48,499 nt of DNA, from the NCBI RefSeq assembly GCF_001186125.1, contig NW_014040253.1, positions 18,614 to 67,112 of the forward strand, given 5' to 3'. Made by a program: the position numbers and the translations under genes. This DNA is from Sphaeroforma arctica JP610. Its lineage: Eukaryota. This document shows, piece by piece, positions 3,970 to 32,393 of this stretch. The notes beneath the pieces were generated by a model, which had not been told where the DNA came from, ran no database searches, and worked only from the letters and a program-made list of their open reading frames with translations. Every line of letters starts with the position of its first letter. Positions within the stretch are counted from its first letter, which is position 1.

Positions 3970-4636
3970 GGCCCAACATCCATTGCTACAGGCTGTATGT
4001 GCATGTGTATAGGTATGCATGTCGCGCATACTAAGCAATAAATAAAGTCAGTACAATAAAAATGATACTGTGCAATGAAGAAGTGCACTCCACCGAATGC
4101 GCTCTACAATCGAGTTCACTGAGCACTACGTGGGCGTAATTGTGCTTATATTCTCACTGCTTTCGTATCCGGCTGAGTCCGTAGTTCTTGCGCCCACCCG
4201 TTGTAGAACTAAAACATTCGAATTGCCGTTAACGTTAACGCAATATGAATAATTTCGTTTTATACACGATCGATATATTCTGGCAGGGTTTAGGGTTCTA
4301 AGGTTGTCTGTCGGAGAGCCGAGTTTTTGCCGCATGAGGATCATTCCCATCGATGACCCAATAGCCGCCGTTGAATTCGTCTGCTAGTCTTCTTGCTACT
4401 GATGGGTGATCCAAAAGCACGGAGTTACCAGGCATTGCACTTTCATTATAGTAGTAGTCTTATAGCATTGTACTTAAATTAGTATTTCATTTTGATTCTC
4501 ATATACAATATCACATTGCCCTTTCACTAGTTTGCGTGTATCGTGATTAAGCTGCGAGTCCGGTATGCAAAACAAAATTCGGCCGATAACCCTTAATGCA
4601 TAGTGTATCCAGGTATAGTCATCTGATCAATGATCT

Positions 4637-4950
4637 TGTAAACCTGCCTGGTACCGATTAGCCTAGAATTCAGTCATGTGCTCCGAGCCTGCAGCCTATT
4701 GGTTGTTCACTGATTGGACGACGGTTAAAATGGCGCCAAGGAATGATGTCGGCACTTTGACGCGCCACACGTTAGGATGCGAAGATTGACTGTTAAAGCT
4801 TCACACGATAGGACGTAGCGCTCTGTTTACAGCTGCCGCTCTACGTCTCAAACCATGAACCTTTACAATAATACAACTCAAAAGGTCGTTCGTGCGACCT
4901 TGATCGCTTCTGAGGATATTGTTTTGCCGTCGAACAACACTTCTATCTCA
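4637..4950 (+). repeat. 5' LTR of element 1
   Basis: Begins TGTAAA, ends TATCTCA, followed by ACTGGTGATTCCCG. Shares CGCCAAGGAA, TGACGCxCCACACGxTAGGATGC and GTTTACAGCT with 10719-10926. Confidence 0.7.
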
Positions 4951-4952
4951 AC

Positions 4953-4970
4953 TGGTGATTCCCGCAAGGA
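4953..4970 (+). promoter_or_regulatory. Putative primer-binding site
   Basis: TGGTGATTCCCGCAAGGA begins 2 nt after the LTR-terminal CA; TGG is complementary to tRNA CCA. The priming tRNA was not identified. Confidence 0.5.
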
Positions 4971-7900
4971 CTCTTGGGTCCTTCGTCTTCACGACAAACG
5001 CACAATCTCTTCCTGGTACCGCCAAACCACAGCGCACATTGAATCCAAAGAACTCCACACTTTAGCAAAGTGGTACTTCACTGCTGGGCACACCCCTCTA
5101 ATCAACCGCTAGATGAACTTTGTGGGATCATTCCCACTGGCACCTGGTCGAGCAGCACCTGGCCCCTCCCACCACACCACAGAAGAGGCCTTCGATTGTG
5201 TTGGCTAAGTTAAAGGGCCGTACCTAGCCTCTTCTTCATTCTTCAAGCAGGGCGTCAAAACTCGCATACTTACTAAAGCTGAGTCATGGCCTCCGTCGCC
5301 ATAACAACAACACCGTATCACCGAGCGGACTTCCTGGAGGAGTTCTCGGTATTTGTGCTAGGGTGGCCACTACCCTCTGCTTTTAGTGTCCTGACTAGAG
5401 ACCACTGTGCTCACCTCGGTGTGTACCCTGTCCGTCGGAAAATTGAGCTCGGGGCAAAGGCTTTGTTCAAAGCGGTTTCAAACACCACGAAGCGGCGTGC
5501 CAATCAGTCTACAACCGCTCCTTCGCCACCCTTGTAGCGCCTGCAACTTCACAAGCCTCCGGCTACTCCAACTGTAATCCTGACATATCTTGATGATACT
5601 TCTTCTCAACAGTGTCCTCTGAAGCCTGTTGGCCTCTTCCGTTTTAACCACCCGTGAACTGGTCAACGGGATGCTCACAACTCTCGAGGAGAGTTGATTG
5701 ATTAAGATAATAATTTTATCTGGGGTGTTGCTATTGAGGATTGGGTGACCATTGGGTACCCAGAACCCCATCTGACTACTTTCGTGATTCCTATGCAAAA
5801 GGCTCGAGATGCGCTTCAACAAAGCTCCCTCCAACTACCCTCGGCTACATCTCTGATGGCATGATCTTGGCTTACTTTAATAGCGAAGGATGACTTTAAT
5901 ACCGGAGGACGCCAACAGAGATTGCCGTTCCATTTATGCTTTCTTGCTTTCCCTGGCCAACGATGCCTTTTATATGAACCTTCTTTAACCGAGGCTCCTT
6001 CGCGATCCGGACCTGACTGATGTCTGTTTAGACAATGTTGAACGCACTCTTTGCATCGCCATGTTGGCCTTCCGATGCGGTTGCCGATTTCGAAGAGTCG
6101 CATCCACGAAAGTGTTGGAATTACTATCCACCCATTACCAATACCCAACGAAACCACTCTCCAAGTCAAAACATAGACTACAGCCGAATACTCACCCGAC
6201 AACCCAGGACCAATCTGAGTTAACTTTGGTCCAACCTCGTGTCTCAGCCTCTGTTAAAGAGAACACGAAACGTCGAATCCGTTCCCAAGCCTGTGACAGC
6301 AGCCATCGATCACACTCTCGTACTCCGGGCTTTCAGTCAGCGTACTCCTGCCCTGGATTCCGGGTATGTCTCTTATTTAAAAAGGATGAGGGCTGAAGCT
6401 AACATGAGCCAGGCCACTTTATAAGTGACCGCCCCCACAACAGTTTCACTAGTACTCTAGGCGTAGTGGATGAGGATCGAGCCTGAAATAAGGCGGGCCA
6501 GATCGTCAAAACACGCTTTCTTGCCTCTATTGTGATACTGTTCTTTGTTACACCGACAACATAATTAAAAAAGGATTCGTGGTAGCTGAAGATCTCAAAT
6601 GTATGCGATAGACCCTGTCTTGATGAACACCGTTGGGGTTGGTTTATTCAATCCCCAACGGAACAGAGTACTACTACAATCTTACTAGAGATATATACAG
6701 ACAAAGGTCAGAAAACCTGGTTCGTAACAACAGAATTCCAGTTCCTGGTGACCATTGGGATCCCCTGTTCATGTGGCATACTCCCAGTTTTACTGCTAGG
6801 AGCGATTATTTAATTGTGGCAAAATATGATAGTTCTACAAACTTTCTCACCTTTATGTTAAATGTCCAATCACTACTGTATTGACAGGTTGAAACAGACA
6901 TCCATACCTGCACGGATGCTACCCCCAAGCTTAAAACATATAAGCAGCGGGTCTCTTGATAAGTTGAGTGGGAGGAACAGATCTGCCTTCGCGACGAAAA
7001 GCGAGGCATATTGAATAGAGAAAGGGAACTACCACATCCCTTGGGTGTCTTCTGTTTTTCTTAGCCAGGACGAACTTCAATCTATCCTATATATATCAAA
7101 GATAATAGATATCGTCAGAACTATAAGATAGGCAATGAAAACATTATCGACCCTTATGACCCATGCCTTGAAATAAGATTGCCTGGGCCATATACGCCGT
7201 GAGTTCTGAAATGCACTGAACGTAGCCGCGGCTATCTAAATTGGATCTCGGGGACGTGTCTGGAGGCCTACAGCTGGAGCGTTTGGTGTTAAGTTACCTA
7301 TATGTGGTTACAAGCTCTAAAACGCTTTGTGGATGACGGGGCTATGGCACTCTGGGAATTTATTTTTTTAGACTGGCAGTCGCGAGATACACCATACATG
7401 TCCTTGGCCCTTGCCCCATAAGAAAAACCCCCGTTTCCATTGTCCCGTGGCATGCCATGCTGCCCACACCGGATAACGAGGCCAAAATGGGGGTTGTCAT
7501 GCTTGTCATTCTAGACCCTTCTTATTTTGTTGACACATCCTCCATCGAACTTGAAACAGGTCTATCTGTCCGCGTCCCTAAGGACGGGGAACCACCGACA
7601 GTATTTCTGAAAGGATGGTTCAATCCCTATGTACTAACCGTACTGTGAAGGCGAAAGATAGAATTACTTACTTCATCTATATCCCAGAGGTGTTCACCAA
7701 CGCCCTTTGTCGCTGTGACCTTAACACTTTCTGATTACAAAAAGTTGCGCCGTGTCAAAGTTAAACTCGATACGAAACAAGAGGCTGCTATGTTTGAAGG
7801 AGACGCATCGACTATCAAACCCCGTTTCCATAGATGACGGCTGACGACCTATAGTAGACCACTGTGTTCACAGATATTGCATTATAAATAATATTCTGCA

Positions 7901-9936
7901 CAAACTGAATTTGGCCCAGCGATGATACCATATCTTTGACCCGGGAACCATGGTAACACTAACTGCCAACTACGATGTACTCAACTGACCAATACACTAT
8001 ACAGTCTTATTTTTGCCCGAACATGGCCGAACACTATGCGAGGCGACCGCCTGCTAAGCGTAGTAGAAAAGATCAAACGTTTTCACATTGATCTCCGACA
8101 CATACCTGGATTGTGAACTATTTTACCCTATTATACCCGAATTAGTGTCTTTCTTGGAATCCGCTCCTCACAAGTCCGAACCCGCTACTTGTGGGTACTT
8201 TATCATATCACCACATTTAAATGCTCATCCTTTGTGCGCAACTCAGCATGGTTCTGTGTTTTCGTAAAGCAATAGGGGGGATTCCTGTGTGAGATAAGCC
8301 TTTTAACGCTAATAAGCGCTGCCACCAACTGACTCCCAAAGTACTGTGAAGCCAAAGATGACGGGACTTAAGGCAAAACAGCGAAGCAAATAAATCTCGC
8401 CTCTCACTTTTCCTCGTCATGCACCTTGAGACAGATATACTGACTTCTTCAACTGAGAGACTACAGAAGTAGACGTATTTTTATATACGTTAATAACCTT
8501 TTACATCGTCAGCCCTAGAGTAATTTGGGACTTGTTCTCAAATTAATGTACGTATAGGTGGGTCAGCCCGAGAGAACGTAAGAGTAATTTGAGACCTCTT
8601 CTCAGATTATTCTAATTATAGGACACGGACCACCGGCTAGCCGAGAGCCGAGGTCCGAGACTGAGTGTAGTAACAGAGAACATGATATATTTATTTCTAG
8701 AAAATATATCCGAGTGCTAAAGTGTTCTGCATAAGGTTTCTCATACTGAAAATATGAGTTTTTACCCTGGCCAACCCAAGTGGTTGAACACTAGTACAAA
8801 AACTATCAGTATATAACTGAGGGTGAGATCATAAATAAATTTATTCGAATGCACCATACTTTAGATACATTTGCAATTTATCTAAAGTCTACTACATTGC
8901 ACTCTAACATCAACTGATTCAATCTGTGCAAGATGATTCAAAGTAATTTTGTCCTGCCATACTGAACTCCTTGTATCTGGTTACAAACTTTTTTTCATGA
9001 TTTAATCGCTGTGCCTCCAGCTATCTAACATACTGCGGACAGTTTCTTGTAGAATGGTATTGCGATCACAATCCTTGGCATACCACCCTGGCTCTATACC
9101 GTTGCTGGACTGATTTCCAGTGATATTAGCGTATTACTCCCATCCAAATCCTTCTCTTTTATTATCACCAGTTAGCGACGTCACATCGACACCAGATGCT
9201 TGTTGTAACCCTATCCTAAACGAGTCTAATCGCATTATGTCACTTGCTCGCCGGGAAACCTCAGCTGGCTCTTAAGTCTTTGTCGACAAACTGTGAGATC
9301 TCCAACCCCACACCATACGTGGTGGTGGTTCAAACTAAGGACTACACCGCAGGTTCCGAGGGCTCAAGCAGGTGTGACACCTCATAACAAGTATAAATGA
9401 TCAGAAGACGTCATTTACGAGCTCGGCTAGTACTACCACGCCGTAAGTTCATCCTGTGACGGCAGTGTAGTGATTCACACTTCTGAATAAAATACATCTA
9501 TACTGCGATCAGCTAGTGATGGACTAGACGTCGAACAATAGCAACTGACTCGTCGGAAAGTTAATAAATACATACCTAGTTTGGGTTGAACGTATAAACT
9601 CACTTAAAAAAAGCTTGGAATGTTGAAGGCTGGAAACTCGTTCGGGATATGAACTTTAGCGATAATACCGTGACAATATCTCAACTGACACATTTATCAT
9701 GGATCGAACATTTCTATCACCCATCCTTCAAATAAATTCAGAACATAACCAACCGATCTTTACCCCAGTAATGTTAATAGCTCAACCAACAAATCTTGAG
9801 GAACGTAGACGTAAGAAGTACGAATCTCAAGCTGCACAAGCGAATAAGCGAATAAGCACCGTCAGGCCGCAGCAATAATTGCAGTTGGGCGTATGACTAT
9901 ATCACAAAAGGAAGCCTTCTTCTTGGATTTTACTCG

Positions 9937-10270
9937 ATGGTGGAGCTCTGTTGTGGCATTGGCACATACAATTCAAAATTGTGCAAACAAAACATATCAT
10001 ATTCATTAATCGAAATTCAGGTGCTAATGTGAGCTGATTGGTACTCCGGCTTTGGAGATCAAAGGCAAATCTCTAGGTAGTAGTAGATATCATTCAAACA
10101 CTCGTGAGTAAAAGATAGAAGGTGCTTGTCGTGTCGAGGGGCTGTTGTTTCCTGTCCATTGACCACGGTGGATAGATCCAAGCTATCTTACAGCCTTGGC
10201 TTCATTGACTTACTCTTTAGTTAACAATTTTAAACTCTGTCAAGGGTACTCCGGCTCGGGAGATCAAAAG
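9937..10270 (+). pseudogene. C5-cytosine DNA methyltransferase remnant within element 1
   Basis: MVELCCGIGTYNSKLCKQNISYSLIEI (motifs I-II, 9937-10017); YSGFGDQR..SR/VVDIIQTLVSKR*KVLVV (motif IV tail to V/VI, 10042-10135); LTTVDRSKLSYSLGFIDLLFS then LCQGYSGSGDQK (motifs III-IV, 10159-10270). Stops and frameshifts present; motifs VIII-X not recognisable. Confidence 0.55.
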
Positions 10271-10706
10271 CACACGAAGAAATTTGGTTTCTATTAACTG
10301 GCTGTTCCAGACGAGCTTGCTTACAACAGCAACGAAACTCGATAGATGGCGTCTTGTCGCTGCCTCAAGGAGTGGCCAGCCGCCATCCAATTTCGCATGA
10401 ATCTAGCACAGCCTTCCGCAAGTATTTTGTGATAGCCCATGCAAATAATAATAATAATAGTATACATGCAACAAGTGTCAATGCAAGCGCGATGTAAAAT
10501 ACCTGAAGGCTTATCTGGACGAACTAAGTTTTCCGTATCAAGGTTTGAACTGCGGGTATTTTTTCTCAAATGATGACGTTTACCGATCATCTCAGCTGCT
10601 CGAATTGAAGACAAAATATGAGACGACTAGACCATCCTCTTGTATTCAAATGAACAAATTATGTTCTTTGGCTACCGTGCTTGAACCGTTGCTGTTTAAC
10701 ATGGCT

Positions 10707-10716
10707 AGGGGGGGGG
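10707..10716 (+). promoter_or_regulatory. Polypurine tract of element 1
   Basis: AGGGGGGGGG ends 2 nt before the TGTAAG start of the 3' LTR. Confidence 0.65.
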
Positions 10717-10718
10717 CT

Positions 10719-10926
10719 TGTAAGCATCGAATCCGAAGCCTGATGGTAGCTCATCTGTTTGGGCGACGATTAGGAATTATCGCCAAGGAAAGCTGACAGC
10801 ATATGACGCTCCACACGATAGGATGCAAAAAAATAGACTAGTAGGGTGTAGCACTCCGTTTACAGCTTTCGCGCTACAACCGACTAACTTGCAATGAACA
10901 TAGACTCCAATCTTGAAGACATCTCA
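10719..10926 (+). repeat. 3' LTR of element 1 (shorter, internally deleted)
   Basis: TGTAAG...CATCTCA; roughly 70% similar by eye to the 5' LTR over the alignable core. Confidence 0.7.
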
Positions 10927-11430
10927 AACTGTGAGCTTTTACGGTCTTTGCGTATTGTCTATTTTATATATGATAAAGATCGCTTCATGCTTGAGCGTAT
11001 GGTAATCGAAATAATACCACAGTTAGACCAGCAGAATCGGTATAGCAGTATTATGATATGGAGCAAGTACTATAAGTAGTTGTATATCTAATGATATAGA
11101 GATCGTTTGATTCTCGCCCGTTGTTCGCTTTTAGCGGGAGAGTCAAGATGGCGTACAATATGATCGTAGAGACTGTTATGTGAATGGGTAATTAATCATG
11201 GCGAAAAAAAATATATCAAAGCTACTACGAAATTCACATTGTACACAGGTTTGTCAACTTTATTCGGTGAAGGTACATTAACCAACTATATTTCGTCCCG
11301 GGGTGCGTGAAAGTCATTGCAACCACTCATACCATTTTCCTGATGTGCTCACGTCTGTATATCAGATGTGTTTTAACTCGAACGAGACGTAGCTAGCACT
11401 GAAGACATAACTGTTCATATCCAGGTTGAG

Positions 11431-12376
11431 TCAATCCCAATGAATAATAACTCTATCGTCGTCTCTGTCGGTATTCAGGTTGTGAGAGATGTGCAAATGG
11501 TTTTGAAACCTCCCCAACTGGTGGAAGTCTCTGTTGCAGCGCTCGTAGACACACGGGTATGGCTTCGGCTCCATAAATGCGTAGTCCACATTGAAGTCGT
11601 AGTTGGTCGCCTTTTCACCTGTCAAATAAAAACTAACTGCGATGCTGCCATGCTGCCTTGTCACCCGTAACTTGTGATAAGTCTTCAGATGAATTTGTAA
11701 CCTGCCTAGCAGGTAGTACCTCTTATCGCACCGTCTGTGTATACAGTGGTATTGTTTTGGCGCCTGCAGCGGTGATTCCACATCGATTCCTACGTCTTCC
11801 ATATGACTATCCGCACTCGGATTGATGACATGATGGTCACTGTAGCGTGATGGACTCAGATGTCCACCATCCTATCTCTGCGATGTTTCGTACCCCAAGG
11901 ATCGCTTGAATGACTGCGCTCTGTTGCGATTCTACTCACAACATTTGATCGAGGCACAATAATGCGCTGAGGTGACGAATTTGCATTGGTAGATATGCGA
12001 TTGTCGACAGATTGGAAGTAGTGATTGTCATCCTTGCGCAAGCATGTCTGTGCGGATGAAGACCCTCTTATCATTGCTTCAGCTGGGTCACATCCTGTGG
12101 AAGCCCCAGGATCGTGTCTTCAACCGATCTGATCACATACCCAATATTGTACCGTTCACAACTTCTATCCTGGGAGTCGGTGTGTAATTGAACGTGTATC
12201 GGGTGTGCTTGTGGCTGTAGTTCTAAACAGTCTTGTTCCTTGGCCGGCAAATTACAACAATGAGGTGTCGTGGAATGCGCTAAAATCGCTTCGTGGGCTA
12301 GCCTCGTTGAGTAGTCTGAAGATGCTGCAAATTCCTGCTCTTGGCGACGTGCCAGTTGAGGGTCCGTAAACGTCAT
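11431..12376 (-). pseudogene. C2H2 zinc-finger gene with two fingers; frameshifted or spliced
   Basis: ORF 11431-11802 has YHCIHRRCDKRYYLLGRLQIHLKTYH and YPCVYERCNRDFHQLGRFQNHLHISH. Upstream ORFs 11856-12074 and 12071-12376 nearly abut in different frames, with no convincing splice path found. Confidence 0.6.
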
Positions 12377-16211: not shown

Positions 16212-19200
16212 ATGAGTCAGAGTCTTGCTGTGTGCTATGTGTGTCAGCAGCCAGCGGCGAGTGCCTGTCCGTGTCTGCAGCGCAGTTACTGTTCGACTAA
16301 ATGCCAGGTATGATGTCTTCCGGAGTGTGCATTGCTGGACAGGAAAGGACTCATTGTGTATATCTGGTTACAGTTTAAGGCAGGACTGTTCGCTGTGGTT
16401 CGCTGCATATGATAAAGAGATACGAATGCACTAAGCTTGATAGCTCGTGTACCTGAGTTATGATAGCTGAGTATAGTGCTAATAGAGTTTTGCATGGCGA
16501 CACACTTGTTAAACCGCACAAGCTTGGAATGAGTTAACGTCTACGTTTCATTATACCGTTCTGGCCCTGGGGTTGTTTCCGCCCCCCCCCCCTCTCCGTT
16601 TGCTTGCGCTTCAAATAGTCTGCATACTCAACAACCTCCCATGTGTAATTGGCTTATTTTAATTGGCTTATTTTAACTGGTGTATTTCATTGTAATTGGC
16701 TTATGAGCGCAGCGTGATGATTGGTACGCTGGACACGACCTGGATTGCTCGCAAGAAGATGAAGACGAGGATGAGTATGACTCTGTGGAGGCGTTAGGGC
16801 CAGCTGGTATGCAATGACTTACTTTGAGTGGAGTTCTGTGCTGTTGTGTTTGTCTCGCGTTGGTATCGACAGGCGTTGCTTTTGGGCCCATTACGTGCTT
16901 CAGCTGTGACGCGTAAACGGGCGCGTAAGGGAGTGTATATTGGTTATCGATGGTTGAAAGTGTTTGCCCCGTGCTCGCACATGTTTTTAGAAACCCCAAA
17001 CTTTAAACCCCCATTCTCTTGTTGCACCGCCTATCTCTCTGAGTTTTACTGTACGTAATTGAAACAGAATGTCCACTGGTCCGTTGTCGTCAAGTGACTA
17101 TGATGAAGACATTGTTTATTATGGGGGAACTTAGCTGTTCATTTCACTCACAGTCATAGTGCCCATTCTTATCATATTCCCTTCTAGCCACAGACGAAGG
17201 TAACGACAGTGCGCCGCAAACACACGCCACCCCCACCCAGGATGCATCTGCCTCCGATGTTCCAGTGGACAGTGCACCTGCCCAGTCCGACAGTACCAGT
17301 CCAATAATCCGAGGCAGAGGTGCAGCGATCGAGCCCATGACGGAGAATGACCTAGCATATTCGCCTGCTGTAGATGTCGAGATGGGTGCAAGTACTGCTC
17401 GCAAACGAGTGCGATCGAGTCCTTCCAATGCGTCTGCGGATGAGGATTGTGTGGTGCATGGGGATGGGTCACCGCTCCAGCGAGATAGTAGGGGCCTCCA
17501 GTTCAATTACTACATGCCAAACGAGGTGAAGAGGGCAAGGGAGTCGTCCGCCTCTCTCAGTGAGTGTAGCACGTCGTGTGGACCTGATACAGTATCTGCG
17601 CCTAAGGCAGTAGTACCAGAGGTTGTGCAAGGGCAGGACAAATGGGCAGGTGATGGTAGTGCGCATGTGAAAGGTAGCGAACAGCCTATGGGTACGCCTC
17701 GAAGGAATAGCAAGGACTTAAAGTTTAATTACTTTATGCCAAACGAGGTGAAGAGGGCGAGGAAGTCGTCCGCCTCTCTCAGTGAATATAACACATCATA
17801 TGGGCCGGATACAGTACCTGCGCCTCAGCCGATAGTACCGGAGAATGCACAAGGACAGAACAAATCAAACGGCAGTGGTCTTACGAATGTGATAGGTCGC
17901 CAGCAGCCTACACCTATAGCTAGCACTCTGTGGCTGGACACCGTTCTTTCGTATGTGCTGGCTTATACCCACCGTTATACCCACCGGGGTCCACCGCCTG
18001 GTACGTATAGCCGTGTTGCAGCACCACACACCAAGGATGGGAACTCATGCACTTCGAATGATCTCATTCACAACGATAGCAATAGGCAGATAGTCACGGA
18101 TGGCAGCTATGTTGACACGCATGTTTATGACACCTTCCGTAGCGCTATGCCGTATCCGAGCGCCAGTGGAGTGACAGATACAAATGCGACGGATAGCTCT
18201 AACACTCACCTCACAACACAGACCGTAACACATGTGGTGGAAGAGACGGCGCTTGTGAAGGAAGCCACTCTGTCGAGCACCTGTTCCGATCTAGCCACAC
18301 AACTGCTGAATGAGACGAATGTGTTCCATCCTGTGGACACACAGGACGGTCCCTTCACAGCCCACAAGCCCAAGCACCTGTCCCTCTCGAACGGACAGGG
18401 CCACAGAAATTGTACCGGCAGTGAGCTGACCCATACGAATCTGGATGGGACCGTTTGTGTCCAGAACACACACGACGGACCGGAGTGCCTATCGTCGAGA
18501 GCGCTTCAGGCGGCCCTCGACCCACACCAGGTGTGCTTTGGGGAAGGCAAGCACTGTGTGGTGGAAGATGCTGGCGATGCTGTGGGGATGAGTCCTGGAC
18601 TCCCCATTGATGCCGCCCGAGATACAACCACGCCCGTTACACCAACAGCGCAGTCTGCTATAACCCCAAAGGCCATTGGGCAAGCAAGCAGCACGGCCGA
18701 GACGGACAATCGAATTCATGTACAGGGAAATATAGACGCTAACGGCCCAGTACATGACTTGCACACGCACTCCAATGTACCTCCGGGACCGCTGCACACA
18801 CCCGTGTCTACTCGACTGAGCGGAGTGTACCCGAATGCGAATGGGTCTGTAGGGCTCCACACAACGGCCGGTACCGCACCAGCCCAGACCAATGCGAACC
18901 CGTGGATAGGCAGTCTAGGAACACCCACCCACGTGCTTAACAGGCAAGTGCATGCACACGCATTTGGTGGTGCTAGGGGAAACACATCGTCATTGCACCA
19001 GGGCCGAGACGCGCGGCAGTTTCAGTTTACTGCAGCCGCGGGGGCTGGGGCTGGCAGTGCTTTCACGGGTGGAGCTGAGCGCCCGCGTGGACTCCGCCAA
19101 GGGACGATATACAACGGTGTGGGTGCCAATACGAGCCAACCAATGTATACCCCCAATGGGGACCATCACACGAACGCATTCGCGCACAATAGCTATAGCT

Positions 19201-21329
19201 CGACTACCGCGACAATGCAGCCAGTGACAAACACATCACGGATTGGTCAGGCATTCCCGTCCGTAGCGAATCGGGACAACCCGCATATACGCGGCTTCCG
19301 AGATAGCACTGGTCGTATACATGTGTATGATGGCAATCAGTGTATAGGTGTAACCGGATCAGCCGGGGCATCTGGTGCGCAAACATTTTTATATAACAAT
19401 ACCGCGAGTAGCCATAATCCTGCTATGAGGGTAAGTGCGGAATACATGCGACAGTCGGACTACTCAACTGTATTCGTACGCCTCAGCCAAGGGATGCAGG
19501 CTACCAACGTAGAGATGGAGGCTATCAACCAGGCTATCAACGCAGCAACAGCAAACAGAGCTGTGAATAAGACTCAAGGGTCTGGAGAGACAGACGGATT
19601 CAGTAAGATAACAGGCCAATGGCAAGCACCATCCACAGGAGTGAGTGACATGCACAGGCGAGGTACTACACAGCCCAGTGGGGTTAGTAGGATTAATAGT
19701 ACACAATCCAATGGAGTGAATGTGACTGATAGTACACAATCCAATGGAATGAATGTGGGTGATAGTACACAATCCAATGGAGTGAATGTGACTGATAGTG
19801 CACAATCCATTGGGGTGAATGTTATTGATAGCACACAATCCAATGGAGTGAATGTTATTGATAGCACACAATCCAATGGAGTAATTAGGATTAGAGGGCA
19901 TCAGCCGGAACGGCCCAACCAACAGAATAGCCGACGCATGGATGTGGAATCCATTTTGAAGGTGTTGGACTTGAATAAAAGACGTCTAAACGTGGACGCA
20001 CAAGATCACAACCTACAAAGCACGCTGACGGTAGATAACGGATCCATCCCACCGCACCGTGTGTGTATAGATCTGACCGTCTCAATAGATGAACCCAATG
20101 CAACCGATGAGACCATTTCCCCAGCCCAAGAGTCAAGCGAACCCCTTGGCGTCAACAGTGGTGTTGAGCCGCAAAGTGTGGGAGCACACACCGCTGAGGA
20201 GCCTTTAAGCATGAAAGTACACACCGCTGAAGAGCCTTTAAGCATGAAAGTACACACCGCTGAAGAGCCTTTAAGCATGAAAGTACACGCCGCTGAAGAG
20301 CCTTTAAGAATGAAAGTACACACCGCTAAGTATGAGCGCGATGCAGAGCCTTCGTCTCCCGCGAGACCGCGCACGCCACACAGTGACGACGCCAAGGCAG
20401 AGCAGAAAAGCAGTGCAACGGTGGCTGTTAGTGGCAGTGAGTTAGCTACTACTATAGGCAGTGGGGTGTTACCCACTGCTAAGGCCAGCGGCGCCTTAGC
20501 TGTTGAGCCGGAAGGCACGGCCTGTGTATACCATGGCTGTGAAGTGACGATGGTTGGCAGCCAGGCACGTAGGCAGCACGAGCAGACCGCACACGGCTAC
20601 AAGCCGTCTGTTGGTCTACCATACGCGTGTGGGCTGTACAACTGCACCAAACGATCAACCACGCTTAGAGCCAGAAACAGCCATGCAAGACACTGCGAAC
20701 GACGCCACAAGTACTGTTGTAGTTGGGTCGGGTGTGGGTCTCGGTTTGCCTCAGACTACGCGCTGAACGTGCATTACAGATCGCACACGGGCGAGAAGCC
20801 CTTTGAGTGCAAATACGCCGGGTGTGGGGAGACCTTTATGGACGTGACTGCGTGTGGCACACACCAGGCCGACCACTGCCAGTTCAATCCGACACTCAAA
20901 GGAACGGATCACCGACTACCACTAAAGAAGTCGCAATCAGTCACTGGTTCGAAGAAGTCAAACCCCACCAGCCTCAGGAGATGCTCATCCGCTTGGAAAG
21001 AGTGGCAACCACCAGCCACCTACGAATCAACGCATGCAGCTGCTACACGCACAGACACGGCGGGCAGCGGGTCAGGCAGCGAGAACTCGAGTGACGCGCC
21101 CATTGGGAGGCCCCACTCGAGAACTCTGGGTAGTAGACAGCCAAGCACACTCTCAAAGGTAAGTAAGAAGATGTACCTGTGTACTTATAGTGGCTGTGAT
21201 GAACAGTTTGCGCAGGAAGAGCGACAGCAGCGACACACACTCACCCATATATGTGCGTGGAATGGCTGCTACAAAACGTTTTTGGACCCGAAAGATTGTA
21301 TTGCGCACTTCTGGCTGCACAACTGTTGA
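16212..21329 (+). CDS. MYND-finger plus C2H2 zinc-finger protein, ~1443 aa (likely transcriptional regulator)
   Basis: Exons 16212-16307, 16713-16806 and 17188-21329 have consistent phases (4332 nt in total). The spliced N-terminus CYVCQQPAASACPCLQRSYCSTKCQ|RDDWYAGHDLDC is a MYND pattern. The C-terminus has six C2H2/C2HC fingers with a TGEKP linker. The ATG is preceded by CAG-A, so a further upstream exon is possible. Confidence 0.88.
17500..17875 (+). repeat. In-frame 222-nt (74-aa) internal duplication
   Basis: FNYYMPNEVKRARESSASLSE vs FNYFMPNEVKRARKSSASLSE at 17502 and 17724. Confidence 0.9.
19697..19882 (+). repeat. Coding 33-bp minisatellite (STQSNGVNVxD), ~6 copies
   Basis: Visible in both DNA and translation. 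Confidence 0.95.
20184..20328 (+). repeat. Coding 33-bp minisatellite (HTAEEPLSMKV), ~4.5 copies
   Basis: Visible in both DNA and translation. Confidence 0.95.
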
Positions 21330-21895: not shown

Positions 21896-22154
21896 TGTCA
21901 GGTCTGGTCGGCCCAAATCCTGGCCAAGATTTGGGTCGGCCAAAACCTAGCCCTAAAACCCTAGGGCTCAGTTCACAGTCAATCATAACCCCTCGCTACG
22001 ATTGCGTGTCGGCATAGCTTGCCTGAGGCGCCGTCGTAGCCTTACTGTGTCTGAGCACAGTCGCCTAGCGACCCTGCCCCGTGTACGTCTAAAAGAAGAA
22101 AAAAAAGAAAATCAACCTATGCGCACATCGTGTGCGCATCCAGAGAGGCTTACT
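21896..22154 (-). repeat. Putative 3' LTR of element 2, preceded by a PPT at 22155-22166
   Basis: The minus strand reads GTGGGGGTGGAA (PPT), then AGTAAG (likely a mutated TGTAAG), ending ...CCTGACA. The partner LTR is not visible. Confidence 0.55.
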
Positions 22155-22398
22155 TTCCACCCCCACTTGGGAGGTGGAGTTCGTCCACCCTACCTCACCC
22201 TTGAGGATTTCACTACGGCAACTAATGACGAGCTGGCACTTCTACTCTGTTCTCGGACAACTGCAACTCGCCCCAAGCCCGGAGGCGTCCTCGCCTGTAC
22301 GTTCCAGACTAAGCAAAGGCAAAGCACTTCTCTACTTGGCGTTTGAAGTGTGCTCTCTACTTCTCATCCGAGAACATGCTCTCCAACAGCTTGTTGTA

Positions 22399-22830
22399 TC
22401 ACTTGTGAAGCACATGCTGACCCTTAGACCCTGGTACCAACAGTGTGTAGCACTCCAGGTCCGCCTCGTCACACCACATCTGCCACCTGCCCCAGACCGA
22501 GCTCATGCCAGTAGACCACGTACGCGCCTTCTTGGTTCGACGAAGGCAGTGTCCTATCGTCTGCTTGTACCCATCCTTCTTGTCATAAAGCGGCGAGTGG
22601 TATAGGAGCCAATCCTCATACGGACTATTCGGGCGATAACGCATGTGTGTCCTCGCATCTGCTTCCTTCGGGAGTTTCCCAATGTGCGGTTTCAACTCCG
22701 CCCTAAGAAACCTGCGGTGAATACCATCCGCCATCTCCACCACATGAGTGAGTGGAGCTTGCACTGACACCACCTGCGCTGGGCCACCCCACCTGGCTGA
22801 CAGGTCGTGTGACTTGCCGCGCAACCGATA
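22399..22830 (-). pseudogene. Integrase C-terminal GPY/F module and chromodomain
   Basis: DLSARWGGPAQVV (GPY/F-like); IGHCLRR / AYVVYWHE (shifted frame) / MWCDEADLECYTLL, which matches the chromodomain pattern YxVxW...TWEPEENLxCxxL. Confidence 0.7.
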
Positions 22831-23049
22831 CTATACTTGCGAACCAACCGGCAACAACGGCACATCTTCACGCCTGATGTTGGCACGAGTCTGCTGTCCC
22901 AACTGAGCACGACGGTCCCGCATGGCTGCTACAGCATCGCGGACCATCGCCTCAGTGCCCTGCTCCGATTCCAGCAGCGACAACACCCGATCTTGTAGCT
23001 CCAGTCGCTTCTGAACGTTGAAGTCTCTGCCCGTCAGATAAAAAAGGGC

Positions 23050-23540
23050 GAGAAACCCGTGGCCGAATTACGCGTAGCATTGTAGATCCTCACCATTTCA
23101 TAGACCAGGTGCAACTATGCATGCGGAGAAACATCTGCTGCTTCTATCTCCCTGCGCAACCAGTCCTTCATCGTTCTGATAAGGGTCTCTGGTCGCCCGT
23201 TGCTCTGATGCCGATCCACCGTGATCCAGTGCGGTTCTATGTTGCGACGTTGGCAGAAGGTCGTAACATCCCCGTTCTGAAACTTCTTGTCCGCGTCAAT
23301 CACCAGTCGCACCGGTGAACCCTACGCTAATACTTGCTCCTCCATGAAGCGAACAACAGCCGGACCATCCACATTAGGACCAGTCATCCGACACATCCTG
23401 ACACGCGTCGCATCTTTGTCGCACATGAGTGCACTCCATGGTGCCACTCCAACCCCACAATGTGCGTACAAGCTGGTCCAATCGCTTGGCACTTGCGTGC
23501 GCAAATAGCTCGTGGGTGTAACGTACAATCCGCTCCACAA
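23050..23540 (-). pseudogene. Retroviral-type integrase (HHCC finger plus partial DDE core)
   Basis: THELFAH...CDACQ; PVRLVIDADKKF; HQSNGRPETLIRTMKDWL. The first catalytic Asp region appears deleted. Confidence 0.85.
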
Positions 23541-23889
23541 TTGTACCCCCCACTTCCACCCCGAAGACCGAGCGCTCATCTTCCTCATTCTCATCCACGG
23601 GGTCTGCTTCCCTCCTAGCACGTTCCTCAGCACTAAGAGATTCCTGAACCTCTGGTTCATCCAGATCCATGTCGCCCTGAACAGGCAGCATGTCGACAAT
23701 CTCGGCCGAGTCTCTCTGTCTCCTAGTGAGCTTCGGAGACTCCGCACTCTGGCTTCGAGTGTACATAGCTCCTATAGACCCCTCAGCCTGAGACTCGTCA
23801 CACTCGTCCTGCTAGGTTTCCGCCTTGCGTACAGACTGCTCCAGCACTCCGCTGGGATCCTGCCAGGACTGCGTGGAAAACGCGTCTAC

Positions 23890-24300
23890 CGCAGAGATGG
23901 GTGTGGTCTCTACCCCTGCTTCCTCTGCAGGGAGCACACACCTAGCTCTCTCACTACTCGGATGGGTAACAGCACTCACTGTGTCTTCCTGCACCATACA
24001 GGACACAGCCTCATCCTCACGTTTACTGCCGCCGCCAGAGACTTTCGCTGGGAACCCGCACCTAACCCTCTTACCACTCGGATGAGTCACAACACCCACT
24101 GTGTCTTCCTGCATCATACAGGACACAACCTCAACCTCACACATACTGCCGCCGCTAAAGATAGGTGTAGCCTCTACCCCAGCTTTCGCTGGGAGCCCAC
24201 AACTAACCCTCTTACCACTCGGATGGGTAACAGCACCCACTGTACCTGCCTGCACCATACAGGACACAACCTCAACCTCACGTTTTACTGCCGCCGCAGC
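23890..24300 (-). repeat. Three in-frame tandem copies of a ~40-50-aa unit in the MTase-integrase linker
   Basis: EVEVVSCMVQxxTVxAVTHPSGKRVxCGxPA repeated three times. Confidence 0.9.
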
Positions 24301-24384
24301 TAACCTCTCGAAGACAGGACGCTCCGCTTCCAGCTTCACCCAAAGGTCCTTACGCAACTTGTGCGGTCTGTACGGACTCATGTG

Positions 24385-24790
24385 ACACACCAATGTCACA
24401 AAGTTAGGCGCAGGCATAACCTCACGGCCATGCTGTAAGAAAACTCCTTCCTTTGGGTAGATCACTACCGGATTTGCCGAAAGCATGGGTACCATCTCCC
24501 TAAACCACCTCGCCTCCGGAGCGTACGGACAAACCAACGTAGCTGTTGCCTTGTCCCTCCTGATCCTGGCTACCACTCCGCCAAATTCTGACCACTTAGG
24601 GTTGAAGTACCACCTTGTACCCTTCCATGTGCACAATGCAAACACCCCCCCCCCCCCCCACCCCCNCCCCCCCCTGGCCAGCGTAGGCTGGTAAAACAGC
24701 TTCATATGAAAGTTGGTCGGATTCTAATCCTTCTATATCTTGGTAAACCAACTCTTACTCAAGGCATAGGACTCCATCTTTGGTTCCACC
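24385..24790 (-). pseudogene. DIRS/Dam-like DNA N6-adenine methyltransferase domain inside the Gypsy pol
   Basis: ESYALSKSWFTKI*KD*NPTNFHMKLF...FALCTWKGTRWYFNPKWSEFGGVVARIRRDKATATLVCPYAPEARWFREMVPMLSANPVVI matches the retroelement MT pattern W..L...F..I...DLFA...AF...W....YxNPPF...V..KI..D.A...LV.P.W....WF. It is in the same frame as RNase H, interrupted by two TAG codons. Confidence 0.75.
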
Positions 24791-24849
24791 ACCACCGGCT
24801 CACTCCAATGGACTCGTTCCTCGACCGGAGCACTCCGCAACTGCATGAT

Positions 24850-25260
24850 CGGGTCAATGTGGTAGCCCAAATGCGACTGCATATCAGCCACAGGATTCAA
24901 CACACCCGGTATGTGCTTGAGTACTACGTCAAAGTCTCTCAGTACTTGGGCATAGCGGGCCATCCTCCGATCTCTCACCGACGAATCGTACGACAGCGGC
25001 TCCTTCGTCAGCATCGTGACTAGCGGTTCATGGTTCGTGTAGCTCGTGAGTGGATGTTGCGACCTCTTGACTATGTTCCATGACTTGTGTAAGCAGTACA
25101 TAATGGCAAGAGCCTCCTTATCCGTGATGTGGTAGCCTAACTGGGCAGGGCTGAACTTTGACGACCAGAATTCTACCGGGCAGAGCTTCTTTTCTCGTTG
25201 AGCAAACAGCCCACCCCTACAGGGTCGCACGCATCGCAGTACATCTCCAGCTTATCATCG
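24850..25260 (-). pseudogene. Ty3/Gypsy RNase H
   Basis: MYCDACDPVGVG; PVEFWSSKFSPAQLGYHITDKEALAI; YTNHEPL (TDH changed to TNH); LKHIPGVLNPVAD. Confidence 0.92.
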
Positions 25261-25299
25261 AACAGATGTTCAACCAAAACCCCCCTCTTGGCCACCTCA

Positions 25300-26223
25300 G
25301 CTCGGGTGCGTTTATATGCGTCCTGCTGGATCGGACCCCAAACAAAAGGGACATCCTTCTTGCTAAGATCTGAGATAGGTGCCATGATCCTGGAATAATC
25401 CGGAATGTACTGACTCCAGAATCCTATAGTGTGATACCAAGACCTTATCTGTGGGTGGGGGCATGCGTAAGATAGACTCCATCCGATCGTCGCTGATGGC
25501 CGAGCCACTCTCATCCACCAACCGCCCCAGCGCCAGAACTGCTCTGTCGGAAAAACCAAAACAGCACTTCCTCAGATTCAGCTTGACATTATGCTTCTTG
25601 CACGCGGCTATCAAGGCCTTGATGCTCGTCCAATGTCTCTTAGTATCATTGTCGGCCACACCCATATTATCAATATAGGCCTTAAGACTGTCGACACTTT
25701 GGAAAGCATGTTTCATTCGTTGCTGCATAACCCAAGACGCCGGCTTGATACCAAAATGCATACCCACAAATGTGCGCTTACTCCAAGGCGTCCAGAACGT
25801 CAAGAGATGCTGAGACCCCTCCGCAACCTTGAGCTGACAGAATCCTTGCCCACGATCAACCATGGTCTGATACTTCTTACCTCGTACCGCTGACAAGAAC
25901 TCTTGCTCCGTAGGCACAGGATATTCCTCACACTCCAACGTATCATTGAGCTTCTTAAAGTTTATACAACACCACCAGTCGTTGACTGACAATGGTACAA
26001 ACTCAGGTTTCTTAAAAACCATGTGCGGCATAGCACAATAGCCTTTTGCCTCAGCTTCCGATATCTCTCGGGTTATACCACCATGGTCCCAGTCACCAAC
26101 CTTCCCACCGAGCACCGTAGTGAAGGTAGGATCCTTGTTAGGGTGTACATTGTAGCACGGCTGCGACCCATCTTTCACTTTAAATTCAACTCCATGAAGG
26201 AAACGGATGTCGCCAAAGACCAC
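25300..26223 (-). pseudogene. Ty3/Gypsy reverse transcriptase, catalytically mutated
   Basis: WWCCINFKKLND, YPVPT, DRGQGFCQL, TFWTP, MHFGIK, YIDN (YxDD with D to N), LNLRKCCF, IGFWSQYIPDYS. Confidence 0.95.
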
Positions 26224-27862
26224 GAAAGTGGGGGCAGCCGCATTGTAAGCTACAGACCTTCAGCAGCACGCACGCCTTGTGCAGCTTATGTAACTGGGAT
26301 TGGTCGAACTCCAAATGCGCCTGTGGGTCCACTTCTTTGGCCGGGGATACCGTCGTCGCTCCAATGGGCATGTCAACCTCTGCTAACAAGTCATGCAGCC
26401 GTGGCAACACATACTCGTCTACATTGTCTAGCTCCGCCGTATTGGCCAAGTAATCCAGCCTCTTCTTGATATCCATAAAGTGCGCCTGCACTGAAGCAAT
26501 GTAGTTCTTGCGTTGCTGCTCCCTAAACTCATTCCTGTGGATCGCCCTCAAATCGAGATGGCTGCGCAGCGAATTGAGCTCAGGCTCTGCGGAATTCGCA
26601 CATCAAGTCTCCGCGTCTTGCATCGAAATTGTGTGCGCCGTGCTGTCGCCCGCTTACCCGGCGGGCTCAGCACTACCGGCTGATTATCATCTGCTGCCTG
26701 AGACTCCAGAAAGTCTATGACCTGAGTCTNNNNNNNNNNNNNNNNNNNNNNNNNNNNNNNNNNNNNNNNNNNNNNNNNNNNNNNNNNNNNNNNNNNNNNN
26801 NNNNNNNNNNNNNNNNNNNNNNNNNNNNNNNNNNNNNNNNNNNNNNNNNNNNNNNNNNNNNNNNNNNNNNNNNNNNNNNNNNNNNNNNNNNNNNNNNNNN
26901 NNNNNNNNNNNNNNNNNNNNNNNNNNNNNNNNNNNNNNNNNNNNNNNNNNNNNNNNNNNNNNNNNNNNNNNNNNNNNNNNNNNNNNNNNNNNNNNNNNNN
27001 NNNNNNNNNNNNNNNNNNNNNNNNNNNNNNNNNNNNNNNNNNNNNNNNNNNNNNNNNNNNNNNNNNNNNNNNNNNNNNNNNNNNNNNNNNNNNNNNNNNN
27101 NNNNNNNNNNNNNNNNNNNNNNNNNNNNNNNNNNNNNNNNNNNNNNNNNNNNNNNNNNNNNNNNNNNNNNNNNNNNNNNNNNNNNNNNNNNNNNNNNNNN
27201 NNNNNNNNNNNNNNNNNNNNNNNNNNNNNNNNNNNNNNNNNNNNNNNNNNNNNNNNNNNNNNNNNNNNNNNNNNNNNNNNNNNNNNNNNNNNNNNNNNNN
27301 NNNNNNNNNNNNNNNNNNNNNNNNNNNNNNNNNNNNNNNNNNNNNNNNNNNNNNNNNNNNNNNNNNNNNNNNNNNNNNNNNNNNNNNNNNNNNNNNNNNN
27401 NNNNNNNNNNNNNNNNNNNNNNNNNNNNNNNNNNNNNNNNNNNNNNNNNNNNNNNNNNNNNNNNNNNNNNNNNNNNNNNNNNNNNNNNNNNNNNNNNNNN
27501 NNNNNNNNNNNNNNNNNNNNNNNNNNNNNNNNNNNNNNNNNNNNNNNNNNNNNNNNNNNNNNNNNNNNNNNNNNNNNNNNNNNNNNNNNNNNNNNNNNNN
27601 NNNNNNNNNNNNNNNNNNNNNNNNNNNNNNNNNNNNNNNNNNNNNNNNNNNNNNNNNNNNNNNNNNNNNNNNNNNNNNNNNNNNNNNNNNNNNNNNNNNC
27701 CATTTGGAATATTCAAATGAATGCTATACAAATGGGTTTGAATTGATCCTTTCAATGTTATCTTTCGATTTGCCTGCCATGTGCGTATCTTGAGTGCGGC
27801 AGATATTAGGTTACCTCTACCATCACATACAATACAGTAACGACTCAATACATACATAACAG

Positions 27863-30052
27863 CTGAACGAAGATTTCCAAAACATCACCTTCACGGTGAT
27901 AGATGATGACTTGCTTATGGACGATAAGGTTGGATCAGTCAACTTTAACATAGAATCGCACAAACTGTTGCAAGGGCAGACGCATGAGGGCTGGTTCCCG
28001 TTGGATGGGGATGCACGCAATGGTAAGGAAAGTGCGTGTATGAATAGTATAGTAGTATGTGTGCGTTTACATGCCTCGTCGGATTATATAAACCTTTCGC
28101 AATCCCTCTCCTATGATCTAGAAATGCTTGGCAAAGAAATGTTTTGATTTTTGTGCCCTCTTCAAATACACGCACAGGTCCAATCGAATCCGCATATGCA
28201 GACATGTCACTATTCACGTATACTTTCTTTCATGCGGGTGTGTTTTGTTTGAGCGTATATGGACACAACCTAGACCCAAAACTCACACATAGATCCGCCA
28301 AAACGCGCACTTTTGCACAGACTATATAGTGCATATTCACGGTTCATTCACTTTTGTGGTTTAAAATAGTACAAGATATATCCCATCACACCAGTAGAAA
28401 CATAACACCTCACTGCACCTGAAGATCGACCTGACACTGGCCCCAACAATTTCCACCTAGTCCCGTACACACCCGTGCACACACACTTCGCGTGTATACG
28501 TTAGTATATACTACGGTCACATATTACAAGTTGATAGGGTGGCGTGTCTATAATGTAGATTATTCTTCAGTGCGAACCTTTATGTACTATACTTATATCC
28601 TGCACGTAGGCGAAATTTACCTGACACTGGCCTTCCGCGTGGCTGGCAGCGAGATCGATGTACCGAACTGTTACTTCGATGTACGCGAGAACTCCAAATG
28701 CACACTGTATCAAGATGCGCACCATGATGACGGCGACCTACCTACGCTGGTGAAGGCCAACGGAGAGGAATACGAGCACGGAAAGTGCTGGAGTGATCTG
28801 TACACAACCGTACAAGAGGCTGAACATTTCATTTATATTACGGTGGGTCATGCGTGCTGTTGAGGGTTGGTTCCGTAAATGTGCTGTTGTAGTGATAGTA
28901 CCACATCACTCATATTGCTGTGTCCCAGAGTGCTGTTAGTGCTTGTATACGCGAGGGTGCTGCTTAGGTAGTACCACGTCGTCTACGCCATGTTAGGTGT
29001 TGGTTTGTTCATGTGTAGCTGCGGTAGCATCATTGATTTTGTGCTGGTGCAATCTTGCTGTGCTTGTGGCTGTTGGTATTACATGGCTTAAGTATTTTTT
29101 TTTAATTTAGTGGGACAATGGGAGAGTCCTTTTAATCTATATAATAGGACAATGAGAGAGTCCTTTTAATCTATATAGTAGAACAATGGGAGAGTCCTTT
29201 TAATCTATATAGTAGGACAATTGGAGAGTCCTTTTAATCTGCATAGTAAGACAATGAGTGAGTTATTTGATTCTATCACCCGCACACACCTACTCATCCC
29301 ACGCGCCTAAATAAGTAAGCCTGATGCAAACACACTGAACTATACGCATACACTCACGGTTGCGTACAACCATAGGAACGGCCAGAATGGATTTACAGGT
29401 AGTACTGTCTCTGCTAGGCTTAGGCGAACTATCTCGTCAGCAACCGCTCACAACCGCGTCACCAAAAACTTTCATCTATAGCTATCCCGTATACGCGCTT
29501 CTAATTAAAAGCACGCGTTTACAATGGCGTACATAAATACAGGGATGGGCGGTGTGGATCAACACGGTACTGTGTCGTGGAGAGGGTGATGATTCCACCA
29601 GCTTGGGCCAACTTTTACGACAGAAGGCGGCTCAAGGCGTAAAGATTTGTCTGTTGGTTTGGAATGAGAAGACCACTTTGCAGAAAGGAGAGTTTGTGCT
29701 GAACGGGATGATGGGCACACACGATGAGGACGTATGTGCTCCCACTCCAAACGTGTCTCTGTACATGTTGTGTATTGTATCTACCTGTATTTCGTTGTCA
29801 GTCCTTGTTTGTACTCAGTTCACGATTAAATATAGTATCATATATTTGCCTACGTGTTATGTATAGCATGTACCTGTATTTCAGTGCTTGACCAGGTCCG
29901 TATATAGCACCACCACAAAGGCATGTGCTTGAATTTATCTGCAACCCAGAACACAATCATGATAGTCTAACTGACGATCGTTTAGGTGCTGAAAACTGCT
30001 GCGCACTATATGTTACATATATATCTGCTTGCAATGCTTGCATATGTATATA

Positions 30053-30104
<52 letters not shown>

Positions 30105-32331
30105 GAGTTTATCTGTAAATGGTAATATCCGTGTATAGTGCGTATTTTTTTTATAGCTTTTGAACTACAATGGCGTTTTCTTGTTTGTATGAATGATGGA
30201 TGAGCATGACGCAGAAATGCAGAAAAATCAATCGACTCACATTTCTGCAGAAATGCAGAAATACCGATCGACTCACATTTCTGCAGAAATGTTTTGTGTT
30301 TCTTCTGATGTGAATCAAAACAGGGGAATTTAGAATTAGCTATCCATACGACGTACAAAGTAAGCCCCCACCCACCAGCACTGTAAATTCGCGTGTTGTT
30401 TGCGAGGTAGTCCGAGGGTGTGTGTGCACGCAACCAACAGCTTGGCTATATCAACGCATTTGAAGGTATCACATAGAATCCCATTCAGGCTTGATTTCGT
30501 GGATCTGTTCGAATATCGTACACCAATACCGACCTGGCAACACAGCAGACATGGGTGGTTCGGATGAGGTGAAGCAGATCGAGGTCTTCGAGAACATCAA
30601 GTGTGAGCTACTAACACACTGCGTGCCCTAGGGAACAACTGCGCGCTTTGTTTTTACGTACCATTGAAAACTTGTTGATGGTGTATCCCATTTACATTCA
30701 TTCGTCAATGTGTTGTTACATACATCTCCTCATATCACACAATGCTACTAGATTAAACTATACCACAGACGCGACTGTTTTTGTAAAAGACTTTGGGGCC
30801 TACGAGTATACCAAGTGCAAGCCAGCCACCTGCTACGCATCTCGGAAAGCGCACGCATACCTTGTTGTATTTTGCGCGCCACAAAAATTCAATCAATACG
30901 ATACAAATATTCACGGATGTGTGTGAAATAAAGGTGTGCAGGTTCTGACGTCTGACACACAATCATATGACATCCCTCCCACACCGCAGACGCGCGTGTT
31001 TTTTGAGGAGGAGTTCGAGGGCTACAAGAATGTCAAGTGCAAGCTAGCCACACGCTACGCATCTCAGGGTGCGCTGACACAGTTTGTGTTCACTCATCAC
31101 CAGAAGTCGGTGATATGTGACAGTCCCTGTGCCGAATATCCCGACAGAAAGCGCACTGTGGCGTTTATGGGTGGTATAGATCTGTGCGATGGTAGGTACG
31201 ACACACCCAAGCATCCCATTTATAGAACACTGCAGAGCATACACAAAGACGACTACCACCAGGTCTGGCCGGGCATTACACAGGAACATGGGCCAAGGCA
31301 ACGTAAGTGTGCAGTGTGTGTTAAATTGGGGTGGAGGTGAGTAGTACGGGTCTGAGGGCTTTGCTTGTCATTTGCCGCCCCCCAATCAGTCTAAGAACAG
31401 ATTCATGTGCATTGTATCACAAAAATGTGCACAATCAATCCGACGACCTAGTACCTAAACTCGAGAAGATACCCCATAGTTTAATTCTAGATATATATGG
31501 GGAGTATGCATTCTCATAGCCTGGTTGTGAGCAGTATGCATATGCTCGTGTATGTGATTGTAGCTGTAATAGCTATACTTCTTTTTACACCTATGCTCAA
31601 ATCGCTCAAAAGAATGCATACAGCTGCACATTTAAATGATTTTTGTGGGTTCTTTCATCGCACAGCGTGGCACGATATACACAGCAAAGTAGAGGGCCCT
31701 GCAGCCCTGATGGTCAAGACAAACTTTGTAGATCGATGGTATGGACATCTATCTCGACACTAGGATTCGTGTCTTCGGGGTTTTATATCTAGGCTAATAT
31801 GTGGCCTCAAAGTGTTACGGCTGAATCTATCTTATGCCCCTGCTGTACTGCTTGTATCGAGCATGGTGTAGTTGCTATATCTAGTTGGTATATTCCCGTA
31901 GCGTTTGAAACGTATGTTCATCTTTGCACGTGTACAAGCAAGGAGTCATATGTGTTCAATGTGTAAATATCTGACCTGAAACATGTGCAAGGAGGGGTCT
32001 GTATTGATATACTTACATCGGCCAACAATACTACAGCCTTTGTGCAATTGAATGTCACCACCTACAAGTTCGATACTGACAGTTTTTATGCACGATTTTT
32101 TATTCAGGCACGAACAAGGCAGTAAATACCTGGCATTTCTCAAGGTGGGTATCTAGTCTTGTGTGTATATATGTATTTGTAGACGTATCCATACACAGAC
32201 AGACGTCTGTATGAACTCTTAGAATTGAAAGTTGCGGTGGTTGTATTTATGGTTATGAAGCACACGATCTATCTACAAAAACTCAACGTCTGTACACAAT
32301 CCATTTGTGTGAGATACTGATATATATATAT

Positions 32332-32393
<62 letters not shown>

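Follow-up and report, generated by a model that had tools for sequence, protein, structure and literature searches.

A putative C5-cytosine methyltransferase relic in a decayed LTR retrotransposon of Sphaeroforma arctica

Retrotransposon-borne C5-cytosine methyltransferases (C5-MTases), to which the original prediction for this locus appealed as established background, have indeed been published for Klebsormidium and, as EpiLTRs, for Cymbomonas and Euglena. According to the accessible part of the describing preprint, the EpiLTR of Cymbomonas tetramitiformis is a chromovirus whose pol carries a DNMT at its 3' end and which also has a DAM domain and a chromodomain, and elements of Euglena combine a chromodomain, a DAM and a DNMT (bioRxiv 10.64898/2026.05.21.726589). 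In KnitGypsy-Dnmt3 of Klebsormidium nitens, a Dnmt3-clade domain lies in the Pol ORF and is under purifying selection, and the element has DIRS-like repeats (PMC5890265, in the portion available). The same source reports that SymbioDIRS-Dnmt3 carried out de novo CG methylation in yeast; the yeast result for KnitGypsy-Dnmt3 was negative and is called inconclusive by the authors (de Mendoza 2018, PMC5890265).

Among the ichthyosporeans, chromodomain-less DAM-LTRs are reported from S. arctica, Abeoforma and Pirum in the accessible part of the preprint (bioRxiv 10.64898/2026.05.21.726589). S. arctica itself is reported to lack genomic 5mC and serves as the 5mC-free control beside the methylated Amoebidium, and ichthyosporeans other than Amoebidium are credited with DNMT2 and DNMT6 only, in the available sections of that study (PMC11244446). 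Published counts of DNA_methylase genes in S. arctica differ, as far as the available portions go: two genes of unstated class in one supplement (PMC5890265) versus none in every class in another source (PMC12344493). The accessible literature describes no ichthyosporean retrotransposon with a C5-MTase, and the preprint supplements may list further DNMT-bearing elements.

The locus described here lies in the window, which is the whole 48,499-nt stretch of S. arctica DNA that was analysed. Like the Cymbomonas EpiLTR as it is presented in the accessible part of the preprint, it is an LTR element, probably of Ty3/Gypsy type, with C5-MTase-like DNA between pol and the PPT. In contrast to the EpiLTR, neither a DAM nor a chromodomain was detected in it, the copy is dead, and it sits in a holozoan that reportedly has no 5mC. 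With KnitGypsy-Dnmt3 it would share a C5-DNMT on a Gypsy retrotransposon, whereas it has a plain LTR pair and no open frame left. With the ichthyosporean DAM-LTRs it shares its host, and a DAM-type Gypsy element lying 12 kb off has an RNase H to which its own can be aligned; however, the DAM-LTRs carry an adenine methyltransferase, and no DAM-like match was found in the old element. The plant chromomethylases (CMT), DNMT1-family enzymes with BAH and chromo domains (compare PMC12344493), have only an idea in common with this element, that of coupling a chromatin reader to a C5-MTase. Since no chromodomain and no intact relative were detected, the chromomethylase-like coupling suggested in the original prediction is unsupported.

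The best explanation for the locus, with a probability of about 0.55, is that it is a dead, ancient LTR element in which the DNA from pol to the PPT is what remains of a C5-MTase, probably an accessory gene of the ancestral family (Table 1). The design, a DNMT-bearing Gypsy element, is already published; novelty would lie solely in a host that is a holozoan without 5mC.

Table 1. Features of the old LTR element, in positions of the window.
Feature	Position	Strand	Basis and remarks
5' LTR	4677..~4950	+	Begins TG, ends CA; end approximate; aligned to 3' LTR
PBS-like stretch, TGG-type, starting TGGTGATTCC	4953..4970	+	Two bases past 5' LTR; identified by sequence only
RNase H of pol, decayed	7872..8070	+	Frameshift-aware alignment; clearest matches stop at HIPG near 8070
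High-copy repeat, 456 nt, later insertion splitting the element	8454..8909		Contig depth
Integrase-like AYHPGS peptide	9021..9095 (AYHPGS 9078-9095)	+	3' of RNase H; not significant alone
C5-MTase motif I-II-like piece MVELCCGIG...YSLIEI	9937..10017	+	Model matches; SAM-binding type
Duplicated piece: 28-nt motif IV tail copy, then VVDIIQTL..KVLVV	10040..10139	+	DNA self-comparison
C5-MTase motif III-IV-like piece IDPSYL..SLTYSL..CQGYSGSGDQK	10172..10282	+	Model matches
Ambiguous MTase-like stretch	10390..10655	+	Three overlapping, mutually exclusive readings
PPT AGGGGGGGGG	10707-10716	+	Identified by sequence; precedes 3' LTR
3' LTR	10719..~11033	+	Begins TG; end approximate

The LTR pair is confirmed. 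A blastn comparison gave 113 identical positions out of 164 (E 7e-16), and the local alignment score of 128 was far above the highest value among shuffles (44; 0/100). Across 259 aligned positions the LTRs are 74% identical (K2P 0.32), and the insertion is therefore very old. No target-site duplication was recognised at the LTR ends. An Rfam search of 4000-12000 returned no matches, and the window contains no tRNA genes. The interior of the element is badly decayed and broken by stops and frameshifts: none of 33 tiles matched a retroelement family in Pfam, and no RT was found with four Gypsy-type pols or in the Pfam and PDB searches. The clearest remnant of pol is the RNase H. When 7872-8254 was aligned with the corresponding domain of the window's second Gypsy element, the score was 30.1, against a shuffle maximum of 24.6 (0/60). 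Within 8910-9930, the AYHPGS region was the top match for three of four Gypsy-type pols, each time below the shuffle maximum.

The copy number of the element was judged from contig depth. The inserted repeat reaches a peak summed depth of 80,000-120,000, as against 130-430 in its flanks (runs X15 and X11), or several hundred times the flank depth, with sharp and loose ends at 8454 and 8909. Outside this repeat, depth is flat at the single-copy level (80% likeness; three runs covering the whole element). No second copy at an identity of at least 80% was present in the four runs compared, and no intact relative came to light. Additionally, run X20, from another organism, contains similar DNA at 8861-9483, 9518-9617 and 9702-10009 that is about 92-97% alike; this coverage is thin (depth 4-24) and reaches the end of the motif I-II piece. 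From this sequence likeness, the insertion of the element may predate the split from the X20 organism. A CpG footprint of self-methylation by the element was not seen, the observed/expected ratios of 0.79 and 0.90 in the element lying near those of the window (0.86) and of the second element (0.77), with no element-specific CpG loss.

The original prediction placed the methyltransferase downstream of a chromodomain, in an INT-chromodomain-DNMT organisation. This arrangement was not recovered. There was no Pfam match to Chromo and no chromodomain among the PDB matches for pieces of the element, and in pairwise comparisons with three YLVKWKGY-bearing pieces, one of them doubtful, the score of 8.2 was equalled or exceeded in 85 of 100 shuffles; the integrase-like peptide, as noted above, stays below its shuffle maxima. 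Decay may hide a chromodomain, the RT being likewise undetectable. A DAM-like domain was also sought in the old element with that of the neighbouring element as query, and the score of 14.1 did not reach the shuffle maximum of 20.1.

The neighbouring element is a second, younger Gypsy element at 21900-26260 on the minus strand, about 12 kb from the old one. It retains an RT (PF00078, E 7e-10), an RNase H (E 5e-14) and an integrase zinc finger (E 0.019). Between its RNase H and integrase lies a YFNPKW stretch without a methylase match in Pfam or PHROGs, whose NPKW we take to be a DAM-like motif. The second element fits the published ichthyosporean DAM-LTR lineage, and it has no C5-MTase-like 3' end. 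Three further features of the window were recorded. A 146-codon frame at 11431-11871 on the minus strand, just beyond the 3' LTR, has two C2H2-like Cys/His patterns and no Pfam match. A 1389-codon open frame at 17160-21329 on the plus strand contains repeats, and its C terminus bears C2H2 zinc fingers (PF13465, E 1.5e-4). At 27917-38180, also on the plus strand, is a multi-exon phospholipase D gene whose best match is S. arctica SARC_05021 (E 1.8e-67). Of its 12 tblastn pieces, seven reach 97-100% identity and two are weak, while the three at 87-91% probably extend into introns; on this gene the host is S. arctica or nearly identical to it. The gene's nearest named relatives after the ichthyosporean-type matches are plant PLDs.

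All of the peptides quoted in the original prediction exist. They are spread across the three plus-strand frames of 9937-10270, between the RNase H and the PPT and inside the LTR pair. MVELCCGIG (9937-9963) and IEI (10009-10017) lie in the frame of 9901. The motif I block scored 15.6 bits with the independent model described below, with a Cys in place of the usual Phe, and the motif II block was weak (5.0 bits). Together, the motif I-II piece scored 13.3 and was matched by none of 200 local shuffles, with a phage model that had been selected on the same piece.

For motif IV, the two predicted peptides are both present but in separate frames: GFIDLLF occupies 10198-10218 in the frame of 9901, and CQGYSGSGDQK follows in the frame of 9902 (10238-10270). 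In the frame of the catalytic-type Cys at 10238, the DNA of GFIDLLF reads SLTYSL with no frameshift, and it is this frame that aligns to the phage-family model. The Pro expected before the Cys is also missing, LCQGYSGSG having a Leu in its place. The motif IV block scored 13.7 bits with the independent model, and the motif III-IV piece scored 13.2 with the phage model (0/200 local shuffles).

The third predicted part, a motif V-VI-like VVDIIQTL..KVLVV, did not hold. VVDIIQTL (10080-10103) and KVLVV (10119-10133), both in the frame of 9900, lie upstream of motif IV and behind a 28-nt duplicate in which 10040-10067 and 10245-10272 are identical at 25 of 28 positions (0/300 shuffles). A second small DNA match joins 10114-10139 to 10341-10370 (9/300 shuffles). 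Because of its position upstream of motif IV, the motif V-VI candidate can be assigned only to the duplicate, and at the protein level its score was not significant (28/200 shuffles). The duplicated piece also explains why the spacing between motifs II and IV is 75-100 nt too long.

Downstream of motif IV the evidence becomes ambiguous. Around 10500-10570, three readings compete: a motif IV-VI reading (SFPYQ..RSSQLLE..RP...N), a motif VIII reading (FSVSRFELRVF) and RLIWTN. The stretch 10390-10655 scored 20.1 with the Firmicutes-phage model (0/200 shuffles), and with the independent model 49 of 200 shuffles did as well. The motif VIII-like block at 10529 reached 8.7 bits, overlapping the two other readings, and the motif VIII model on its own gave 19/100 shuffles. 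The ENV of motif VI is absent from every plus-strand frame of 9700-10720, where the best blocks scored 3.8-5.0 bits. For motifs IX-X, scores as good came from 61 of 100 shuffles on the upstream side of motif I and from 69 of 100 on its downstream side, and a permuted enzyme with motifs IX-X upstream is accordingly unsupported by these scores. Over both sides of motif I, the motif VIII and IX-X models ranged from 19 to 80 of 100 shuffles, none of them significant. A second, tandem methyltransferase half at 10351-10655 was also considered and is backed only by the post-hoc phage model; at the DNA level this stretch does not resemble the first motif IV half (238/300 shuffles).

Searches of sequence libraries returned no C5-MTase. 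PF00145 matched none of the six frames and none of ten pieces at E values up to 5-10, and no piece had a C5-MTase match in Pfam, PDB, NCBIfam, PHROGs, phages or plasmids; the single-frame searches were run with X at stop codons. A search of 1.84 billion representatives gave two matches, both repeat-driven and to unrelated repeat proteins. With the open stretch 10461-10700 as query against a 5.8-billion set, none of 14 candidates was a homologue, and the ORF 10461-10793, which is not in the motif I frame, had no usable match in the Atlas. The RT of the neighbouring element, used as a query for homologues, yielded 0 of 514. A three-frame column profile reached 0.8 bits and was insensitive, and plain frameshift Viterbi alignment with three models gave only matches of 6-15 residues. 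A pattern scan with the motif IV peptide did retrieve five viral loci (L141-L145), all bacterial-type C5-MTases with PPCQGYSG; as they were fetched by a pattern derived from the relic they are not independent of it, and four of the five were used further. Three of these loci have Y-x-MVDLF before motif I, echoing the YSMVELC of the relic. Two metagenome matches to the pattern were set aside, neither being in the CQGYSG.G reading and one (L146) being judged a chance match, as was one genome locus from the scan. A further pattern scan of viral sequences gave no loci.

The case for a methyltransferase is carried by models of C5-MTases built from bacterial and phage enzymes, in which the motif blocks are scored in order and frameshifts are allowed. 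Specifically, an independent model was made from 49 Chloroflexota C5-MTases out of 55 loci, gathered without reference to the relic. Its ordered score of 32.3 was reached by none of 300 shuffles (maximum 24.8) and by none of 167 tiles of the window (maximum 25.6), corresponding per tile to a Gumbel p of about 4e-4 (1.5e-3 when motif VIII is left out). When order was disregarded, the sum of the top three blocks (29.8) was matched by 1 of 100 shuffles and surpassed by 4 of 100 tiles. A general model of 16 sequences gave 26.7 (1/300 shuffles, 0/83 tiles) and was not significant in free alignment (23/120). A phage model of 63 sequences of the IDLLIGGSPCQ type, which also stood in for the Dnmt3 clade, was not significant either (20.4; 38/300).

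The Firmicutes-phage model gave an ordered score of 31.1 (0/300 shuffles, 0/167 tiles). It consists of 13 sequences around a Bacillus phage enzyme and was chosen post hoc, that enzyme being the best motif I-II fit among 83 single proteins, with a score of 18.6; the null for this score covers the top six proteins only (maximum 15.1 in 25 shuffles). The model produces three separate matches, of 13.3, 13.2 and 20.1. The two that were not used in its selection sum to 33.4, as compared with maxima of 27.3 in 150 shuffles and 25.7 in 129 tiles.

Based on these scores, the stretch that holds the motifs probably derives from a C5-MTase. The principal alternative is that chance alone brought the motifs together in decayed DNA, either non-coding or from the tail of pol, and that no methyltransferase ever existed here. 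What exceeds chance is only the order and spacing of the motifs; no single frame or piece reaches a library threshold, and every unbiased search was blank for C5-MTases, as a chance origin would have it. Short motifs arise easily, as the three incompatible readings of 10500-10570 illustrate, and in the top-two test the control sequences still score 21.1 when reversed and 19.4 when reverse-complemented. Furthermore, the region was first chosen by eye, and with about 95 independent tile-strands the look-elsewhere probability comes to about 4% per window. Against this, the true motif order scored above all 300 permuted orders (maximum 31.3), and three separately built models, the general, the Firmicutes-phage and the independent one, agree on the two sites, 9937 for motif I and 10235 for motif IV. 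The location is also one at which LTR elements carry accessory domains. A chance origin is rather unlikely, and the relic put forward in the original prediction is moderately supported by the ordered-motif test (0/300 shuffles, 0/167 tiles).

A different possibility is that the stretch does derive from a C5-MTase but entered this one element only once, as a passenger copied from part of a viral gene or of the message for a host RNA methyltransferase (DNMT2 or DNMT6), and was never selected. This would account for the presence of an N-terminal half only, motifs IX-X not having been found, and it agrees with a stretch that is single-copy at an identity of at least 80% and internally duplicated. 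Possible host sources are on record, in the accessible parts of the two studies: the DNMT2 and DNMT6 to which ichthyosporeans except Amoebidium are reportedly limited (PMC11244446), and the two DNA_methylase genes listed for S. arctica (PMC5890265 supplement). However, pol is equally single-copy, so copy number cannot separate cargo from passenger, and we consider a passenger rather improbable. A third reading, in which the motif I-II piece alone is genuine and stems from a non-C5 SAM-dependent methyltransferase, is scarcely credible, for although the sole NCBIfam match of this piece is the SAM-methyltransferase TrmB (E 0.1), the CQGYSG block follows at C5-MTase spacing with a nearly equal score (13.7 versus 15.6 bits).

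We therefore return to the decayed accessory gene as the preferred reading. What raises the prior for a C5-MTase is that the stretch lies within an LTR element, after pol and before the PPT. The ancestral family would have carried the enzyme as an accessory gene. It would have bound SAM through motifs I-II and methylated cytosines by means of the motif IV Cys. By analogy with proposals for other retrotransposon DNMTs, its target may have been the cDNA of the element itself or the insertion site. Presumably the benefit was lost and the family went extinct in a lineage lacking 5mC. The present copy is dead and makes no enzyme today, because motifs I and IV are in different frames with stop codons between them and motifs VI and IX-X are unrecognisable. 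It is more tentative that a Gypsy family captured a C5-DNA methyltransferase independently within the opisthokonts, so that retrotransposons of the Sphaeroforma lineage once wrote 5mC, and we hold this to be slightly less than an even chance.

If a C5-MTase relic is indeed present, a close relative of animals would join algae, dinoflagellates and Euglena as a host of retrotransposon-borne C5-MTases, and it would follow that DNMT censuses based on hmmsearch miss decayed copies of this kind. The relic would date to a period in which cytosine methylation was still of importance to the Sphaeroforma lineage. It would lie in a genome that has no 5mC today and in which the other Gypsy family bears an adenine methyltransferase in place of a C5 enzyme.
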